A DNA stretch of 27,122 nt, from contig CAZRSD010000001.1 of the NCBI GenBank assembly GCA_964602645.1, positions 1-27,122 on the forward strand, written 5' to 3'. The translations under genes and the position numbers were made by a program. Positions 17,939 through 24,906 of the stretch are shown piece by piece; the first letter of the stretch is position 1, and the number at the start of each line of letters is the position of its first letter. The notes beneath the pieces were generated by a model. That model was not told where the DNA came from. It searched no databases and saw only the letters and a list, made by a program, of their open reading frames with translations. This DNA comes from an uncultured Myxococcales bacterium (GTDB taxonomy: Bacteria; Myxococcota; UBA727; JABDBI01).

Positions 17939-18265
17939 TCAACTTGATGCTGCCTTCTTTAGAGTTTCACGCACCCAAACATTCATGCTTTTATGCGCTC
18001 GCATAGCAGCCAGGAAAAACAATTGATGTTCTTCAGGGGTAGCTCTAACGGGAAAATTGCCGGAAAAAGGGCGTTCAGGCTCTTCGCCGCGTTCCTTACA
18101 AAAGGCCAAGTAATCATCGATCGAATCTTTAAACGCCTTTTTGAGCTCCCTAACGCTTTTTCCTTGGAAGGTAATGACGTCCTTAAGGTTGGCCACTTCC
18201 CCGTGAAAAATTTCTGCCTCATCATCAAATTCAACGTTCGCAACGTACTCCTTATATTTCATCAT
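17939..18265 (-). CDS. hicB: HicB antitoxin
   Basis: MKYKEYVANVEFDDEAEIFHGEV...DVITFQG...FKDSIDDYLAFC...PERPFSGNFPVR, with C-terminal RHH. Confidence 0.93.
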   Translation of the reverse strand: MMKYKEYVANVEFDDEAEIFHGEVANLKDVITFQGKSVRELKKAFKDSIDDYLAFCKERGEEPERPFSGNFPVRATPEEHQLFFLAAMRAHKSMNVWVRETLKKAASS

Positions 18266-18516
18266 TTGCTGACTCCTGCTGCTTCTAGAAATCGTCGCAT
18301 CGACGCTAATGCACCCTTATCCGTTTCTTTTTGTGGATGCGGTCGATGAAACACCGCCCTGACACCATTAAGAGCAATCCGCACCCTAGAGCCATTGCCC
18401 TCAGATATTTCCGCACCAAGGGATCTTAAGAGATGCTCAATATCTTTCCATGGCACATCAGCCCTTGTGGGCTTTGCAAAAATGGATTCAAGGGTCTTTT
18501 GATGCTTCTTCTGCAT
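18262..18516 (-). CDS. hicA: HicA toxin (mRNA interferase)
   Basis: TLESIFAKP...WKDIEHLLRSLG...GNGSRVR...VFHRPHPQKETDKGA. Confidence 0.93.
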   Translation of the reverse strand: MQKKHQKTLESIFAKPTRADVPWKDIEHLLRSLGAEISEGNGSRVRIALNGVRAVFHRPHPQKETDKGALASMRRFLEAAGVSK

Positions 18517-18522
18517 CAGGTC

Positions 18523-18551
18523 ATGATATCAAAATATGATATCATATGCAA
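18523..18551 (-). promoter_or_regulatory. hicAB promoter with inverted-repeat operator
   Basis: Minus strand TTGCAT-N17-TATCAT, with the -10 ending 6 nt before the hicA ATG. Perfect inverted repeat ATGATATCA-aaata-TGATATCAT (18523-18545). Confidence 0.75.
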
Positions 18552-18711
18552 TCCGAAGAACATGAAAGAAATTATTAACAAAATTTCGGCGACTTATAGC
18601 GACATCAAACAAGACCAACGTGAGGGAATATTTTGACATCAAACCCAGGTTCTAACTAGACAAGTTAAATTTTCACCGAACAAGTCACCTATCGTCCCTG
18701 AGAGGATTTGG

Positions 18712-21429
18712 ATGAACTATATCGATCTGCTCATCGTAATCGTCTATCTATTGGTGACACTTGCAGCAGGTCTAGTGTTCGGCAGAAAAACCTGCACCAT
18801 TGAAGACTACGCGATCGGTCGTCGAGAATTTTCGAATTCGGTATTAGCAGCTGCAATTTGCGCCACCATGATTTCAGCAAGCGGCACATCCGGGCTCACA
18901 GGAAAAATTTACTCATTTGGCGCCATTTTTGTTGCTTCTTATTTTGGCGTCGTGGTCGCTAGATTATTAGTAGCTTTTGTCGTCGCGCCAAAAATGAATC
19001 CGTTCTTAGGCATGATTTCCTGTGGCGATGTTCTCGAAAAATTATATGGCCGTGAAGCCAAAATAATGATGGGACTCCTCACCCTCTTAGAAGGCTCATT
19101 GCTTGCAGGCGCCCAAGTGCTCGCTACTTACCAAGCTGGCCAATATTTTTTTGGTTTTTCTAAAGAGATCGGCGCGATCACCACGTCGGGGATCATCATT
19201 CTTTATTGCTTCAGAGGAGGCATCAGAGCGATCACCGCCACCGACGTATTCCAGTTTGTCATGATGGTTGTCGCGATCCCTATCGTTGCAGCAATTGCCA
19301 TTGAACATATTGGCGGCTTTTCAACCTTTGTAACCGCCTTAGAAGAGCGCCGTCTGCTCACAGATTCTTTGACACATGGCGACGCGCTCAAGCATATCAC
19401 TATATTCGTGTCATTGGCCTTAACCTGCGTCATCCCGCTCACGGTACAACGCATGCTCATGGCTAAAAATACCGAGCAAATTAGAAAATCCTATCTACTG
19501 AGCGGCCTCATCACTTTTCTCTTCTACTGCGCAATAGGCATCGTGGGACTCGCAGCACCGCTATTGTTGCCCAACATCGACCCTAATCTATCATTACCTG
19601 CTTTGATCAACGAGCTGCTGCCCATTGGGATTCGTGGTCTCGTCATCGCAGGGCTGCTTTCGATATTCATGTCCAGCTCAGATGCTGACATGAATATCAG
19701 CTCAGTTGCATTAACACACGACATTCTAAAACCATTGTTCCGCGAGAAATTCAACGACAAATTATTGTTCTTCTTTACCAGGCTCACCTTCGTGATCGGC
19801 GGGATAATCTCTACCATTGTCGCGCTCTACTATTCCAACGCGCTCGACATCCTCTTCCTCGTCATGGTGATATGTAATTCGGTTTATTTCCCCGGTCTTT
19901 TTCTGGGCATTCTTGGCCTTAGAGCAACGACAAGAGGTTTTTGGAGTGGCGCTATTATGGGGGCAACAATAGCGCTAGTGCTTTGCCTTATATTCAAAGT
20001 GTTTCCTCTCTACGCCATGATGATAGCGATAGCCGCCAATTCTTCGGTGCTGGTGTTATCTCACGTACGTCGATCGAGCACATCACTACCCTCATTCCTT
20101 AAACTCACCCAGCTCCTTTTGGGTTGGATGAAAAATTTATTATCCCATCAAAATACATTTTTTGAGCTCAAGAAAAGCAGCTTTGCCGTTAGTGGCGTCG
20201 GATATAATGATGTCTTTTCTACGCTGGTGCTCATAAATTCCGTGTTCCCATTTTTCTTTAAAGCTCTCGATTTCACCCCATTGCCGCTGAGCCTACTGAT
20301 TTGCAATGTCATCTCTGGAGTCATGGCTTCACTAATCTTATTAAGACAGGCCTTAGGAGCCTATAAATTTCTCATGCCGATTTTTTGGCAGTTGATGACG
20401 CTGACGTCACTCTCGCTGCAGACTGTCATGCTCTTATCCTATAGTGGTTTTGATGCTGTGTGGATTCTGGATCTTGCCGTCGTAGTCGCTCTCTTAATGA
20501 CGATATCGAGAAAACAAGAATTGGTAATTCATGCAATCGCTGCAGCCATCATGGTGCCGGTACTTATTCATCTGGCGCCGTATTCACCGAATTTGGATTT
20601 GAATAGCTACCAATATTGGTCCTTCTTTCTACACGCTGCAGCGTTGGTCATTTGTCTCAAGATTTTTAGAAATCGAGATATCGCAGCCTACCGCTTCATG
20701 ACGGGCAAGTTTGCCCATGAAACAAGTCGATCGATGACGTCATATTCAACATCGGCGCATGTATTAAACAAATATTTACCTGATCTAATTGAAGCTTATA
20801 AAAGCAATAACAATAATGCGAGGAACATTTCACGTGACGACCTGGTAAACATTTCCAACATCCCCAAGCAACTATTGGAGACCAGTGCCCGCACATGGAA
20901 AAACCTAAAGGGCTTGCTTAGCTGGATGGAATTGGAATTCGACGAGCCTCAGGCAGAAACTTATTCCATCAAAGACACCATCAATTCCGCGATAAATGAC
21001 AACTCAATCTCTCCAGATTTCAGGAAAAAAATTCACATAAAAGATTCAGTAGATTTTTATTACTTTGGTGACAACACTCAAATCACCCAAGTGATAATAA
21101 ACATGCTTGAAAATGCCATGCATGCGATGAATAAAAACCCAAAAGCACAAGTAACTATATGGACTTCAGGACACAGCCTTTTCATAGAAGACAATGGTCA
21201 CGGAATCGAAAAGAACGACCTACCAAGAATATTTGATGACCTTTTCTCAACCAAAGGAACAACCGGACAGGGTTTGGCTTTCTCTAAGCTGGTGATGGAA
21301 AAACATCATGGAGATATCTCGTGTGATTCTAAGAAAGGCCATTTCACCAGATTTGCATTAAATTTCCCCGACATTTCCGACAGAACCAGAGGTCTTGAAC
21401 ATGCAGTCAACGGCTCCCGCATTCTTTAA
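18712..21429 (+). CDS. Hybrid sensor: sodium:solute symporter (SLC5/PutP-like) + CqsS/LqsS-like 6-TM domain + histidine kinase
   Basis: SSS motifs EDYAIGRR, ATMISA, GGIRAITATDVFQF, SIFMSSSD (about aa 1-450); second hydrophobic block (about aa 495-655); H-box FAHET (His669), N-box QVIINMLENA, G1 IEDNGHGI, F-box IFDDLFSTK, G2 GQGLAFSK. Confidence 0.9.
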   Translation: MNYIDLLIVIVYLLVTLAAGLVFGRKTCTIEDYAIGRREFSNSVLAAAICATMISASGTSGLTGKIYSFGAIFVASYFGVVVARLLVAFVVAPKMNPFLGMISCGDVLEKLYGREAKIMMGLLTLLEGSLLAGAQVLATYQAGQYFFGFSKEIGAITTSGIIILYCFRGGIRAITATDVFQFVMMVVAIPIVAAIAIEHIGGFSTFVTALEERRLLTDSLTHGDALKHITIFVSLALTCVIPLTVQRMLMAKNTEQIRKSYLLSGLITFLFYCAIGIVGLAAPLLLPNIDPNLSLPALINELLPIGIRGLVIAGLLSIFMSSSDADMNISSVALTHDILKPLFREKFNDKLLFFFTRLTFVIGGIISTIVALYYSNALDILFLVMVICNSVYFPGLFLGILGLRATTRGFWSGAIMGATIALVLCLIFKVFPLYAMMIAIAANSSVLVLSHVRRSSTSLPSFLKLTQLLLGWMKNLLSHQNTFFELKKSSFAVSGVGYNDVFSTLVLINSVFPFFFKALDFTPLPLSLLICNVISGVMASLILLRQALGAYKFLMPIFWQLMTLTSLSLQTVMLLSYSGFDAVWILDLAVVVALLMTISRKQELVIHAIAAAIMVPVLIHLAPYSPNLDLNSYQYWSFFLHAAALVICLKIFRNRDIAAYRFMTGKFAHETSRSMTSYSTSAHVLNKYLPDLIEAYKSNNNNARNISRDDLVNISNIPKQLLETSARTWKNLKGLLSWMELEFDEPQAETYSIKDTINSAINDNSISPDFRKKIHIKDSVDFYYFGDNTQITQVIINMLENAMHAMNKNPKAQVTIWTSGHSLFIEDNGHGIEKNDLPRIFDDLFSTKGTTGQGLAFSKLVMEKHHGDISCDSKKGHFTRFALNFPDISDRTRGLEHAVNGSRIL

Positions 21430-22285
21430 ACCAACAACGATATTGCTCGTTGATGATGACGAACGCTACATAAAAAACATTGCAACCTTGATCGCTCATC
21501 GTTGCAAGCCCGTTGTTGTTACGCCTAATGATTTGGACAAATATCGCTGTTCAGAGCTCTTCACCGTGCTCGAGACATTTTCGAAGAACAACCAATCGTT
21601 ATCCATAACCTCAGTGATGAATTTTTTTTCAACGCATAGAAACTCATGGCCGGTATCAACGATAGTGATTGATTACGATATGGCACCGAAAGACGGCCTG
21701 AGTATTCTCAGAGAATTTAAGAGCTCATTTATTCAGAAAATTCTTATCTCAAATTTTTTGCAAGAAGAAATATCTCGCGACGCCATTAATCAAGGCGTGA
21801 TTGACTTTTATCTACCAAAAATGGACCCTCTTTTTATCGACAAATTAGCGGAAACAGTCGCGATGGCCCAGCACCGGTTTTTCTACAAACTGTCGGCTAT
21901 CGTGCCCGATTTCTTTTCTCATGATAATCCACTCCGCGAACCACAGCTGTACAAGGTTTTTAAAACCATCCAGTCGGAATATGACGCTGAATACTATGAA
22001 TCGCACGACCATCTCAGGCGTTTCACGTTCTTTAATGGCAACGGCAGCGCAAAGGCAACGCTTCACATCTGGCCAGAAGCCCATATTGATGAGTTGGTTC
22101 ACAGCATCCCGGCTGAGTCAGCACCACAAGAAGTGCGTGAACTCATCCTCTCAGGTAAGACGATGCCCATATTTGTCGACGATATGATTCCTGACGGTAA
22201 GGAATGGCACAAGTATCTGCAACCAGCAAATTTACTCAACGGTAGTAAAAAATACGTCTATTCGATTTGTGGAGCTGAGCTATGA
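21401..22285 (+). CDS. LqsR-like response regulator (receiver with insertion plus non-HTH output domain)
   Basis: FFKPTTILLVDDD, long insertion, STIVIDYDMAPKDG (phospho-Asp), QKILIS, AINQGVIDFYLPK, and C-terminal GKTMPIF...WHKYLQPAN...KYVYS parallel my recollection of Legionella LqsR. RBS AGAGG before ATG 21401. Confidence 0.8.
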   Translation: MQSTAPAFFKPTTILLVDDDERYIKNIATLIAHRCKPVVVTPNDLDKYRCSELFTVLETFSKNNQSLSITSVMNFFSTHRNSWPVSTIVIDYDMAPKDGLSILREFKSSFIQKILISNFLQEEISRDAINQGVIDFYLPKMDPLFIDKLAETVAMAQHRFFYKLSAIVPDFFSHDNPLREPQLYKVFKTIQSEYDAEYYESHDHLRRFTFFNGNGSAKATLHIWPEAHIDELVHSIPAESAPQEVRELILSGKTMPIFVDDMIPDGKEWHKYLQPANLLNGSKKYVYSICGAEL

Positions 22286-23025
22286 ACTTCGAGAGCGCCT
22301 ATAAGGGAATCAAACCAAGCGAGATCGACAATGACACACCGGAAATCGCAGACAGATACTTAAATCGAAAGCCAAGTGGCACAGGATATTTGGCCTATCG
22401 CGATATACCGATGCTCATTCAAAAATATGTAAAAGGCGAACGAGCGTTAGATTTCGGCTGTGGAACTGGCTACTCCACGCGCCTTATAAGGGAAATGAAT
22501 TTTGACGTCGTTGGCGTCGACATTAGTTTAAATATGCTTTTGCGCGCGCTTTCGATCAAAGATGGCATCCCATTTGCTCATATCAAACATGGCGAAATAA
22601 ATGCCAAGGATAATTCATTCGATTTTGTCCATTCATCCTTAGTTTTCTTCGACATGCCAACGATTCATATGGTAAGAGAAGCACAACTAGAAATTAGCCG
22701 CATACTCAAACCCGGCGGAATCTTTATCGCCGTCGTCGGCAGTGAAAACCTGCACCTTAACAATTGGTTGACCGTGACGACCGATGTTGCTCGGAACAAG
22801 ACAATAAAATCGGGTGAAGTGTATAGGCTCGATACTCCCCATGCTGGCCTCTACTTCTACGACTATTACTATTCCGACGACGATTACCGAACGACATTCG
22901 ATCAGGTTGGTCTAGAACTCTTGGAAACCCACTACCCACTTGGCCGAGACTCAGATGGATTTCCATGGCAAACCGAAAAGTCGGTGTCAGCGCAAACCAT
23001 TTATATCTGCAGAAAACGCCACTAA
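22282..23025 (+). CDS. Class I SAM-dependent methyltransferase (small-molecule type)
   Basis: Motif I ALDFGCGTG, VVGVDISLNML, FDFV, ILKPGGIF; no DNA-MTase DPPY/NPPY or PC motif; ATGA-coupled to the response regulator. Confidence 0.9.
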   Translation: MNFESAYKGIKPSEIDNDTPEIADRYLNRKPSGTGYLAYRDIPMLIQKYVKGERALDFGCGTGYSTRLIREMNFDVVGVDISLNMLLRALSIKDGIPFAHIKHGEINAKDNSFDFVHSSLVFFDMPTIHMVREAQLEISRILKPGGIFIAVVGSENLHLNNWLTVTTDVARNKTIKSGEVYRLDTPHAGLYFYDYYYSDDDYRTTFDQVGLELLETHYPLGRDSDGFPWQTEKSVSAQTIYICRKRH

Positions 23026-23642
23026 GCTCGTCGATGCCAGATGATCTTTGCTATGGTGGGCGATACAATTCGCTCTAAATCGGTCGATGCATTCGATCTG
23101 GCAAACACGTTGTCGTCGTAAAAGTGCAGCCATCTCGGTGCAAATTTTCCCGAAGAAAGCTTGATCATAAATAAGTTTGCCCCATCGTGCGTGCCTTCCT
23201 TGCATATGCTGTCAAACAGAACCATGGTTCCCAAGACCAAATCACCACGACCGAATAGCGGCGTCATAGCGTTGTCCTCGATCTCGACGGTTATCGGATT
23301 ACCATTGGTCTTTTGGCAGGATTTTATGAAATGGTCGATGATGTCATCGAAGTGTTTCACGTTGCATGCGTCTTGCAAATTGAAAGTTGGCCCGGTCCCC
23401 ATCCCAAATATCAACCAATCATGATTAATAAAAACACCGTCTCTGCAAAACGACTCGACGAGCTTTGCGCAACCTTCGCTTCTGGGCACTACGCCAAGTT
23501 CCCAAGTTTTGAGAGATTGCAACGATATTTCATGTCGTCTACAGAATTCTTCCTGGTTTAGTCCCGATAAAACTCGACAGGCTTTGATTCGCTGCCCTAT
23601 CTTCTTGCCATCAAACTTAGCTATTTCATTAGACTCGATCAT
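23022..23642 (-). CDS. CI-like repressor: XRE HTH plus degenerate S24-like domain
   Basis: IGQRIKACRVLSGLNQEEFCRRHEISLQSLKTWELG, DWLIFGMG linker, EIEDNAMTPLFGRGDLVLG. ATG 23642 has a GAGG RBS; the ORF track starts at TTG 23678. Confidence 0.8.
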   Translation of the reverse strand: MIESNEIAKFDGKKIGQRIKACRVLSGLNQEEFCRRHEISLQSLKTWELGVVPRSEGCAKLVESFCRDGVFINHDWLIFGMGTGPTFNLQDACNVKHFDDIIDHFIKSCQKTNGNPITVEIEDNAMTPLFGRGDLVLGTMVLFDSICKEGTHDGANLFMIKLSSGKFAPRWLHFYDDNVFARSNASTDLERIVSPTIAKIIWHRRA

Positions 23643-23712
23643 CTCGTTCCCTCGGTAACTCGTTTTCTTGGTTCTCAAAATTCTTTGATGATTTTTTATA
23701 GTTCACGCTGGA

Positions 23713-23763
23713 CATAAACCATAAGTTCATCTAAAAATTTTATCATAAACTACCGATTCATCT
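23713..23763. promoter_or_regulatory. Two 17-bp pseudo-palindromic operators in the divergent switch region
   Basis: ATAAACcataaGTTCAT (23714-23730) and ATAAACtaccgATTCAT (23745-23761); also direct repeats CATAAAC-N6-TTCATCT spaced 31 bp apart. Confidence 0.65.
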
Positions 23764-23799
23764 TAAACTGTAAATGTCGGGTGTCGATTATTCCAGTTT

Positions 23800-24906
23800 T
23801 TGATTAAGTCTCGGTCGAAAAATTGGGAACCCATCTTGTCTAATAAATGGATATTGAGCGCTACCGAAATCGAAACATTCGAATTATGTCGAAGGAAGTG
23901 GGCCTACCAATATCTTGATGAGATCAAAACACCTCCATCGAAAGCCGCAAGGTTTGGTTCGGCAGTACACAGTTTTTTACAGAATCATCTTACTGGTAAT
24001 GCGATTGACTATCAAACCGCCGAAGGCCGAGTAATTTTTCCTGGCCTTGGTTTTTTACCAAAACGCCTAGCACATGAAAATGTTGAGCGTCCAATCTTTT
24101 TTTCTAAGCATGGTCTCATGTTTCGCGGCTACATTGATTTTGTGGAGCAGATCGATGCAACAACCTTTTTGATCGGTGACCACAAAACTGCTTCAAATCT
24201 CAGGTATGCTCTCGCTATTCATGAACTCAAGAAAAATACGCAAGCGAACATCTACGCGCAGTGGGCATTTACAGAAAGAGCAGCTGAGTTGGTGAAACTG
24301 AGATGGGTTTATTATCGAACATCTTCTTCGCCGAAAGCCATGAGCGTCGATACCGAGCTTTCAAAAAGTGAAGCAGAAGAAAATTTTCTCAATATCGCCG
24401 ATACCGGAAATAAGATTCTCGCCATCGTAAAAGATGGCCCTCCTTCTATCAAACAACCTAGAAATAGCGCCGCCTGCTTTAAATATGGTCGATGTCATTT
24501 CTTTGATCGGTGTAGCGGCGAGGCAAGAACAACATTCACGAAGAAAAATAAATTAGAGGAGGCCCTTATGAAGCAGATTGATCATGATGTTAAGGACAAG
24601 TCATTTCATCTCTACATAGATTGTATGCCCACGAAAAATGAAGCTGCGTACGAGCGTACCATCGAGCTCTCAGAATTATTGAAACCAGTATTAACCAAAA
24701 TTCAAACAGAAAAGGAGTTGAGCCATTATCGGTTGGCGGGCTACGGGCAGCACGTCGGGCTGATCGCCAATTATCTATCCGAGCATTTGAAGAGCAACGC
24801 TTACAAAAGCGATACCGCGATTTTAAGCAGCGTAAAAACACCCGAAGGATGTGACACCCTTCAAACCCTGACAGCCGCAGCTGGACAAGTGGTGAGAGGC
24901 TTCTAA
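23800..24906 (+). CDS. PD-(D/E)XK (RecB/Cas4-like) exonuclease with Fe-S cysteines and an extra C-terminal domain
   Basis: LSATEIETFELCRRKW, FGSAVH, RGYIDFV...IGDHKT, QANIYA, CFKYGRCHFFDRC. The TTG start is uncertain. Confidence 0.87.
   Translation: MIKSRSKNWEPILSNKWILSATEIETFELCRRKWAYQYLDEIKTPPSKAARFGSAVHSFLQNHLTGNAIDYQTAEGRVIFPGLGFLPKRLAHENVERPIFFSKHGLMFRGYIDFVEQIDATTFLIGDHKTASNLRYALAIHELKKNTQANIYAQWAFTERAAELVKLRWVYYRTSSSPKAMSVDTELSKSEAEENFLNIADTGNKILAIVKDGPPSIKQPRNSAACFKYGRCHFFDRCSGEARTTFTKKNKLEEALMKQIDHDVKDKSFHLYIDCMPTKNEAAYERTIELSELLKPVLTKIQTEKELSHYRLAGYGQHVGLIANYLSEHLKSNAYKSDTAILSSVKTPEGCDTLQTLTAAAGQVVRGF

Follow-up and report, generated by a model that had tools for sequence, protein, structure and literature searches.

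The window analysed here is a stretch of 27,122 nucleotides from an uncultured Myxococcales bacterium (contig CAZRSD010000001.1), and one of its genes encodes a 905-residue membrane protein, P0001, in which a whole LqsS-type sensor kinase probably stands behind a complete SSS/SLC5 symporter. The same reading, judged probable as a whole, holds that this kinase forms a pair with an LqsR-type response regulator, that the two genes belong to an operon fixed in a group of phages, and that this operon was captured a single time from a bacterial host. The original prediction, made from the letters of the window, had proposed a phage-borne chimera of three parts that integrates a transported nutrient and a quorum-type signal; as an overall interpretation it is partly supported.

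The open reading frame does not arise by chance, because 12 full-length homologues with ~50% identity are present in public metagenomes, on contigs of ~5 to 46 kb (several of 29-46 kb). An SSS domain, a second membrane block and a kinase had been predicted to lie in this one frame; they do, and both peptide strings quoted in support occur in the translation. In Pfam, the N-terminal domain scores 115.6 bits for the SSF family, whose cut-off is 22.8 (E 3e-33, residues 33-417). Residues 1-452 of the structural model superpose on PutP, ActP and OpuE in Foldseek (TM-scores by hit of 0.74-0.84), and the transporter fold is therefore complete. Transporters of the PutP type have 13 helices arranged in a LeuT-type fold. 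S321 and S322 align with S342 and S343 of SiaT (5nv9), presumably the Na2-site ligands at the Ser-Ser/Thr pair of helix 8, and S321 is invariant in 22 sequences; judged by this alignment, the Na2-site Ser-Ser pair is retained. No NCBIfam equivalog reached its cut-off for this predicted transporter, and the PutP, PanF and ActP models scored far below theirs.

The membrane block and the kinase that follow the transporter form one unit. A profile of residues 478-905 of the window family matches seven kinases from Lqs loci (described below) with E values from 7e-81 to 9e-38. These matches start at profile positions 22-37 in six of the seven kinases and at 84 in the other, and end at 406-414 in all of them; in most Lqs-locus kinases they consequently span sensor and kinase. 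Because a single profile match covers the sensor, the DHp domain and the catalytic domain together, the protein is a two-part fusion instead of the predicted three-part chimera, and the block and kinase are, on sequence grounds, jointly derived from one LqsS-type ancestor.

An AlphaFold model of the whole protein, built on 22 sequences, has a predicted local distance difference test (pLDDT) score of 78. After a linker with pLDDT <50 over residues 458-496, it places helices at residues 495-516, 526-543, 545-578, 582-598, 601-621 and 631-699, and the last of these is continuous with the DHp helix bearing H669. A six-helix membrane sensor that runs on into the DHp helix is a trait of CqsS and LqsS, and it is present in the model over residues 495-699. 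The model suggests a single membrane protein of about 19 helices. PutP has its N-terminus outside and its C-terminus inside; 13 helices in a PutP-like orientation followed by six more would place the kinase in the cytoplasm, which makes the topology self-consistent.

The kinase core is, by its alignments, intact despite the absence of a Pfam HisKA score. Of the predicted intact HisKA/HATPase pair, the catalytic half was recovered by name (Pfam HATPase_c, residues 786-886, E 3e-18), but HisKA gave no score. The long helices of the DHp domain (631-699 and 708-740) are present in the model, and residues 706-886 match solved kinases. H669 and E670, in the motif KF(A/V)HE..R, are invariant in 22 sequences, as are N797, N801, G829, G852 and G854; D827 and G831 are invariant in the 13 closest sequences and nearly so when the nine more distant relatives that complete the 22 are added. 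The codon of H669 (20716-20718) was computed from the residue number and not read from the sequence. The protein has no receiver domain and is therefore non-hybrid.

The six-helix block is a true but distant member of the CqsS/LqsS sensor superfamily. Three independent lines of evidence agree on this placement: fold, partner and synteny, and profile comparison of the membrane part. Because the transporter swamped the full-length fold search, residues 478-905 were modelled apart (pLDDT 79.7). In a search of 550,129 Swiss-Prot AlphaFold models, a comparison with predicted models on both sides, the CqsS proteins of V. cholerae (E 7e-17) and V. campbellii (E 1.5e-16) took ranks 1 and 2, and the V. 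cholerae match aligned 425 residues over query positions 3-409 with a TM-score by query of 0.59. LuxN followed (E 2e-12), and after it came ordinary kinases that match the cytoplasmic part only. The top two rows of an ESM Atlas shape search were a cluster of 675-residue hybrid kinases and a cluster named CqsS (TM-score 0.60), while a feature search of the same atlas returned kinase clusters of ~445 residues without names. A word-indexed search with block plus kinase yielded generic kinases alone, and the alignment of the best of them, the HisKA_7TM protein P0075, is confined to the kinase core.

The membrane part was also compared without the kinase. The hhalign comparison of the window family with LqsS-type proteins gave a probability of 97.9, E 3.9e-13 and a score of 82.7 over 111 columns, where 60 column shuffles gave a mean of 11.1 and a maximum of 17.6, and the reversed LqsS-type alignment gave 11.9. 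For CqsS-type proteins the corresponding values were a probability of 97.4, E 1e-11 and a score of 73.0 over 147 columns, with 40 shuffles giving a mean of 11.5 and a maximum of 19.3. Both the profile and the fold matches that the original prediction called for were thus obtained, and its view of the middle block as CqsS/LqsS-like is borne out by the fold search, the locus-kinase profiles and the shuffle-controlled membrane comparison. The 'PFFF' string on which it had partly relied does not belong to this evidence: it belongs to the first helix of the block, where its counterpart is 'FPLYY', and the LPxFFF motif comes two helices later.

Individual positions of the block can be followed in these alignments. 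W559 aligns with the 'YW' of LqsS-type proteins, and F652-R653-N654 aligns with the conserved 'FRN' that ends helix 6 of CqsS. W584 and D587 align with the 'VW.MS' positions of CqsS-type proteins, although W584 is not conserved in the family. The invariant polar or aromatic residues in the block helices or at their ends are D500, R545 and W559. No reliable mapping onto the window protein was obtained for W104 and S107, which we take to be ligand residues of CqsS. C170, which sets the length of the ligand tail in CqsS (PMC3285556), likewise has no confident mapping onto it.

The reference kinases come from loci whose layout was checked. The regulator of the window was used as a query over 401 Pseudomonadota genomes and matched in 12; in the flanks of these matches, seven kinases of 431-470 residues adjoin LqsR-like regulators. 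At least four of the loci also have a neighbouring PF00155 aminotransferase of the CqsA/LqsA type, and aminotransferase, regulator and kinase together make up the lqsA-lqsR-lqsS arrangement (PMC8023197; PMC10653808). A second search yielded five hybrid kinases of 681-683 residues, each beside a CqsA-like fragment, that is, cqsA-cqsS pairs.

Two further arrangements were seen among the sampled genomes. In one proteobacterium, a phc-like cluster (L069, 3448-8930) consists of an LqsR-like regulator, a kinase, a receiver-kinase and a protein of 464 residues that contains a methyltransferase domain, a layout that matches PhcX/PhcB/PhcS/PhcR of Ralstonia (PMC10653808). Genome G261 contains a 1241-residue protein (L074, 4260-7982, forward strand) that carries an LqsS-like module at residues 872-1235 and lies beside an LqsR-like gene. 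No Pfam family matches the first 870 residues of this protein, and it may be another kind of fusion to an LqsS-like sensor kinase.

The partner of the fusion kinase is encoded immediately downstream, where the regulator gene overlaps the kinase gene by 29 nucleotides. Over ~240 residues (50-291), the regulator matches the PDB entry 6sy9_A, named 'Response regulator' (E 3.8e-14), which is presumably LqsR of L. pneumophila. The receiver residues D18, D91, S117 and K140 could be located. By sequence, the regulator is of the LqsR type and probably the two-component partner of the fusion kinase, with D91 as the predicted phosphate acceptor. An LqsR-like gene also follows the fusion kinase in three paralogous loci of the genome that contains the window (G000 contigs C18, C151 and C173), in a congener (L014), and in metagenome-assembled genomes (MAGs) of Rickettsiaceae and of other alphaproteobacteria (L018 and L019; Rickettsiaceae and UBA1908). 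A complex prediction for the kinase dimer (631-890) with the regulator receiver scored 0.29 (mark 0.34) and is not evidence either way.

The third gene, for the methyltransferase, begins in an overlap with the stop of the regulator gene, and the two genes remain neighbours in the phage contigs, at locus L014 of a congener and on contig C72 of the window's genome. Kinase, regulator and methyltransferase would be co-transcribed as a three-gene operon; a promoter and terminator scan of 18200-23900 gave counts not above those of shuffles. The convergent repressor-like gene that follows has a weak MqsA-type helix-turn-helix (HTH) match in the window, and its homologue on the phage contig L080 has a weak HTH_3/HTH_31 match.

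The operon is a fixed cargo of temperate myovirus-type phages or phage-plasmids, situated between the baseplate genes and the repressor and replication region. The first 17.9 kb of the window encode terminase, portal, MuF-like protein, protease, major head protein, sheath, tape measure and baseplate. The remainder of the 35.4-kb contig encodes a PD-(D/E)XK nuclease, ParA, ParB, an AAA_25 ATPase, a tyrosine integrase and a PLD nuclease. In related contigs (L001/L002, L078, L079 and L080), the kinase, regulator and methyltransferase genes, the reverse-strand repressor-like gene and the PD-(D/E)XK gene follow the same baseplate genes, and in L079 and L080 terminase and portal come after this set. 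Because the slot after the baseplate genes is the same, and because terminase and portal lie beyond it, the operon is inside a phage genome. The predicted phage carriage thus stands for the window and at least four related phage contigs, in which the operon falls within the phage gene order and not outside it. Partition genes together with an integrase are compatible with an integrated or a plasmid-like prophage, and the circularity test of the contig (C1) detected no terminal repeat.

The phage copies can be traced to a bacterial lineage. Maximum-likelihood analysis unites the window's copy and its closest relatives, 13 proteins, in one clade (99/98) that is nested among copies from chromosomes of the host family, and the sister of this clade is encoded on contig C151 of the same MAG. 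In another contig (L003), the gene set is preceded by chromosomal genes, a transposase and a Bro-N gene. These chromosomal genes have 44-90% protein identity to contigs of the window's genome, which ties the phage group to the window's bacterial lineage. Taken together, the sequences suggest that the phage lineage captured the operon once from the paralogue family of its host's chromosome.

Coordinates of the fusion gene, its domains, its neighbours and related loci (window positions unless a locus is named)
Feature	Coordinates	Strand	Evidence
Whole gene, SSS transporter fused to LqsS-like six-helix sensor kinase (P0001)	18712..21429	+	ORF (open reading frame), translation, Pfam, homologues
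SSS/SLC5 transporter domain, residues 1-457, 13 helices by likeness to PutP	18712..20082	+	Pfam PF00474, Foldseek
Linker, residues 458-494, disordered, probably cytoplasmic	20083..20193	+	pLDDT, no Pfam match
Six-helix membrane block, residues 495-655, divergent CqsS/LqsS sensor homologue	20194..20676	+	Foldseek, ESM Atlas, hhalign
DHp domain, residues 656-745, phospho-accepting H669 in KFAHETSR	20677..20946	+	Alignments, model helices
Catalytic ATP-binding domain, residues 746-890, N, G1, F and G2 boxes	20947..21381	+	Pfam, alignments
LqsR-type response regulator, 294 residues, ATG at 21401	21401..22285	+	PDB match, start codon read
Class I S-adenosylmethionine-dependent methyltransferase, 247 residues, third operon gene	22282..23025	+	Pfam Methyltransf_11, E 7e-17
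Convergent repressor-like gene beside operon	23022..23678	-	Weak HTH matches, same position in related phages
ParB, 412-residue ORF, AAA_25 ATPase, 602-residue ORF, tyrosine integrase, PLD-family nuclease (in this order)	L040 (G000 C1), 27001-35417		
Split forms of the fusion	G000 C112 (L012 260-1675, 1665-2981); L047 4623-6035, 6001-7356		

Several other features of the contig were recorded. The 412- and 602-residue reading frames of its distal part have no Pfam match. Directly upstream of the kinase operon, and antisense to it, lies a HicB (107 residues) and HicA (83 residues) toxin-antitoxin pair (17939-18516, reverse strand), just after a short fibre-like gene of 135 codons. The right arm of the phage (18001-27122), comprising cargo, immunity and replication, has a G+C fraction of 0.40-0.47, compared with 0.46-0.51 in the structural arm; the contig averages 46.4% and the MAG 50.0%.

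The block and its fusions are distributed beyond the phages. A search with the block profile (hmmsearch) over 1.84 billion cluster representatives gave 107 matches. Many of these are proteins of ~900 residues with the block at 500-680, the same fusion as in the window. Others are 400-460 residues long, lack an SSS domain and start with the block (P0210, P0245 and P0248), and one of them, P0248, is encoded beside its own receiver gene; the database names of these stand-alone relatives are uninformative. The mention, in the original prediction, of similar fusions in endosymbiont chromosomes proved sound, since they occur in chromosomes of symbiont-like bacteria, namely in MAGs of Rickettsiaceae, other alphaproteobacteria and Amoebophilaceae/Bacteroidota. 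Within the host's family, whose congeners are labelled 'uncultured Myxococcales', the block is present in 8 of 20 other genomes (0.3-3.4 Mb in size), compared with none of 20 from neighbouring families. The host MAG contains many paralogues of the fusion kinase with 30-44% identity (G000 C18, C59, C151, C173, C165 and C195), among which the C18 copy is broken by a TAA stop and the C59 copy is split, and G412, another genome of this family, carries five copies of full length. In a family whose genomes measure 0.3-3.4 Mb, this abundance of paralogues represents a lineage-specific expansion.

Other arrangements of the same modules were noted. In the split forms, an SSS gene of 470-472 codons is followed at once by a block-kinase gene of 439-451 codons; such pairs may be genuine intermediates of fission or fusion, or else copies with a frameshift. 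In Bacteroidota, Amoebophilaceae and Cytophagales MAGs (L022, L023, L026, L028, L029 and L030), SSS and block are joined to C-termini other than kinases. These proteins match profile positions 24-180 only, and some are named HD-domain proteins (P0016 and P0237). The SSS and block membrane modules thus seem to travel together with exchangeable outputs.

Known systems share parts of this architecture. As in the LqsS/LqsT-LqsR system of Legionella, a six-helix sensor leads straight into a non-hybrid kinase core that has an LqsR-type partner, and Lqs clusters sampled from Pseudomonadota share with the window the order of kinase then regulator, as well as profile homology over sensor and kinase. 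In contrast to Legionella Lqs, the window protein has a fused SSS transporter in front and lacks the FPQPYEN and LPFFF...N motifs; the operon contains a methyltransferase gene in place of an LqsA synthase, is carried by a phage, and belongs to lineages outside Legionella. CqsS of Vibrio, the CAI-1 receptor, is the best Swiss-Prot fold match, and its membrane-only profile match over 147 columns extends to the FRN motif. However, CqsS is hybrid, with a receiver at its C-terminus, and its gene adjoins cqsA, whereas the window protein has neither, and sensor identity is ~12%.

CbrA, CrbS/MxtR and RpuS, like the window protein, carry an SLC5/SSS domain of 13 helices N-terminal to a histidine kinase in the same chain. 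In these proteins, cytoplasmic STAC and PAS domains link transporter and kinase, whereas the window protein has a second membrane sensor in this place. No STAC or PAS match was obtained in Pfam between its transporter and kinase (E up to 0.01 for the whole protein and up to 10 for residues 470-720), which sets it outside the CbrA/CrbS/RpuS class. CbrA transports histidine and signals, with its SLC5 domain modulating the signalling (PMC7096432; PMC7918813); the Na2-site serines that the window protein keeps are not conserved in CbrA (PMC7918813). SLC5-kinase fusions in the literature searched carry STAC and PAS only.

Phages are known to carry quorum-sensing receptors (PMC7790227). VqmA-Phi of VP882, LuxR-type receptors of phages and the agr genes of phiCDHM1 are similar to the window's operon in placing a quorum-sensing-type sensor in a temperate phage, near the immunity region. 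VqmA-Phi and the phage LuxR-type receptors differ from it in being cytoplasmic transcription factors, and phiCDHM1 reportedly also carries the agr kinase AgrC. Of these phage receptors, none is an LqsS/LqsR-type pair and none is fused to a transporter. In the literature searched, no link was found between LqsS/LqsR and a transporter fusion, the Amoebophilus or Rickettsiales symbiont groups, or a phage. Architecture and phage carriage would therefore be new relative to that literature, with a function that is predicted.

A number of observations weigh against the reading of the protein as an LqsS-type kinase fused to a symporter and carried by phages of this host. The block is distant from CqsS and LqsS, with 12-14% identity, and its hhalign scores of 73-83 compare with 220 between LqsS-type and CqsS-type proteins. 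Neither Pfam nor NCBIfam gives a match to the block (in Pfam, nothing between residues 470 and 720). The signatures FPQPYEN, after helix 1, and LPxFFFxMxLMNxWS, in helices 3-4, are absent from the block; both are present in all 12 gathered LqsS- and CqsS-type sequences, and the aligned window positions differ. The block is also the least conserved folded domain of the protein. No CqsA/LqsA synthase was found near the fusion genes in a scripted scan of L007-L034 and L041-L047, no aminotransferase family is represented among the called genes of the phage contigs, and the window's genome holds only a partial aminotransferase match (contig C344). With regard to the phage, the host assignment of the contig is based only on MAG binning, the nested tree and one chromosome-joined contig, and the phage context was checked for only 6 of the 13 clade members.

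Some of these points can be read in more than one way. Within the phage clade, mean pairwise identity is 66% for SSS, the best conserved part of the protein, 32% for the linker, 39% for the block, 53% for the DHp domain and 58% for the catalytic domain. This profile fits a constrained transporter and a diversifying or relaxed sensor, and the low conservation of the block may accordingly reflect either shifting ligand specificity or relaxed constraint. Some Legionella species also have no lqsA (PMC8023197). Since the signatures are absent and no CqsA/LqsA synthase is nearby, the predicted sensing of alpha-hydroxyketones and the integration of two inputs remain conjectural.

By analogy with known sensors, the likeliest working model is a kinase gated by two membrane modules, because LqsS-type kinases sense ligands and the SLC5 domain of CbrA modulates signalling. 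Ligand binding lowers kinase activity in CqsS, LqsS and LqsT. Similarly, the six-helix block may bind a membrane-soluble small molecule that switches the kinase off, and the transporter domain may report substrate binding or flux, as in CbrA. The kinase would autophosphorylate on H669 and pass the phosphate to D91 of the regulator, as expected from LqsS, LqsT and LqsR, for which autophosphorylation and phosphotransfer are established (PMC8023197). The phosphorylation state of the regulator would then alter host physiology or the lysogeny decision of the phage.

An alternative to this model is that the transporter is the sole sensor, a CbrA-like transceptor, and that the block is a leftover of LqsS that relays conformational change and binds no ligand. 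The missing signatures, the lack of a synthase gene nearby, the contrast between the least conserved block and the most conserved SSS domain, and the attachment of the same SSS and block pair to other outputs in Bacteroidota, HD-domain proteins by name in some cases, are all in keeping with such a relay. However, the stand-alone proteins of 400-460 residues have the block without SSS, and the response regulator adjacent to P0248 implies that the block can act as a sensor alone; the retention of D500, R545 and W559 as invariant residues also argues against a mere leftover. A relay without a ligand is thus considered unlikely.

What the operon does for the phage admits a similar range of explanations. 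It might be ordinary lysogenic-conversion cargo, an extra module for nutrient uptake or regulation that serves the lysogen and has no role in phage decisions. The slot between tail genes and the immunity region, beside the HicAB pair, is typical of phage cargo, and numerous paralogues, as many as five in one genome, are already in use on the chromosomes of the host family, with the phage clade nested among them. On the other hand, the operon is present in every related phage contig examined, at ~50% divergence, which is unusually stable for exchangeable cargo, and the repressor-like gene that constantly accompanies it hints at a connection with phage regulation; ordinary cargo is therefore regarded as a tentative explanation, possible though rather doubtful. 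Another explanation is a complete communication system, in which the methyltransferase makes a signal (for example a PhcB-like methyl ester), the kinase senses it and the regulator feeds the repressor to decide between lysis and lysogeny. Consistent with this, the three genes stay together in the phage contigs and in L014, regulator and methyltransferase remain adjacent on C72, and the operon always abuts the repressor-like gene. Precedents exist in Ralstonia, where the LqsR-family regulator PhcX is encoded beside the methyltransferase signal synthase PhcB (PMC10653808), and in the quorum-sensing receptors of phages (PMC7790227). Yet the methyltransferase is a generic class I enzyme with no phmmer match, at E up to 10, to the PhcB-like protein of the phc-like locus, so that a Phc-style synthase role, once considered for it, has no sequence support, and no antirepressor or target was identified. 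We also know of no DNA-binding activity of the LqsR output domain. A complete communication system is accordingly improbable. More improbable still is a self-contained two-input system of the phage, whose bacterium would be host-associated, with a transporter-type and a quorum-type lipid sensor, an LqsR-type regulator and a signal-making methyltransferase, that times lysogeny and induction by nutrients and population state.

The preferred reading, a whole LqsS-type kinase joined to a symporter and carried with its partner by a phage group, has implications for several families of proteins. The known CbrA/CrbS fusions use STAC and PAS, and there is still debate on the way in which their kinases read transport. 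In the window protein, a transporter of this family is combined with a CqsS/LqsS-type sensor that is itself embedded in the membrane, so that nature has provided an experiment on how two membrane modules can be coupled to a single kinase. With the fusion, the Lqs/Cqs receptor superfamily also extends past Legionella, Vibrio and the free-living proteobacteria to small-genome bacteria labelled Myxococcales, Rickettsiaceae and Amoebophilaceae. LqsR-type partners were seen where they were examined, in the Myxococcales-labelled genomes and the alphaproteobacterial MAGs, and their occurrence without a synthase near the fusion genes points to other ligands or to eavesdropping. For phages, a two-component sensor of the LqsS/LqsR type joins the short list of phage-carried signal receptors, encoded in an operon that is fixed beside a repressor gene across a phage group.

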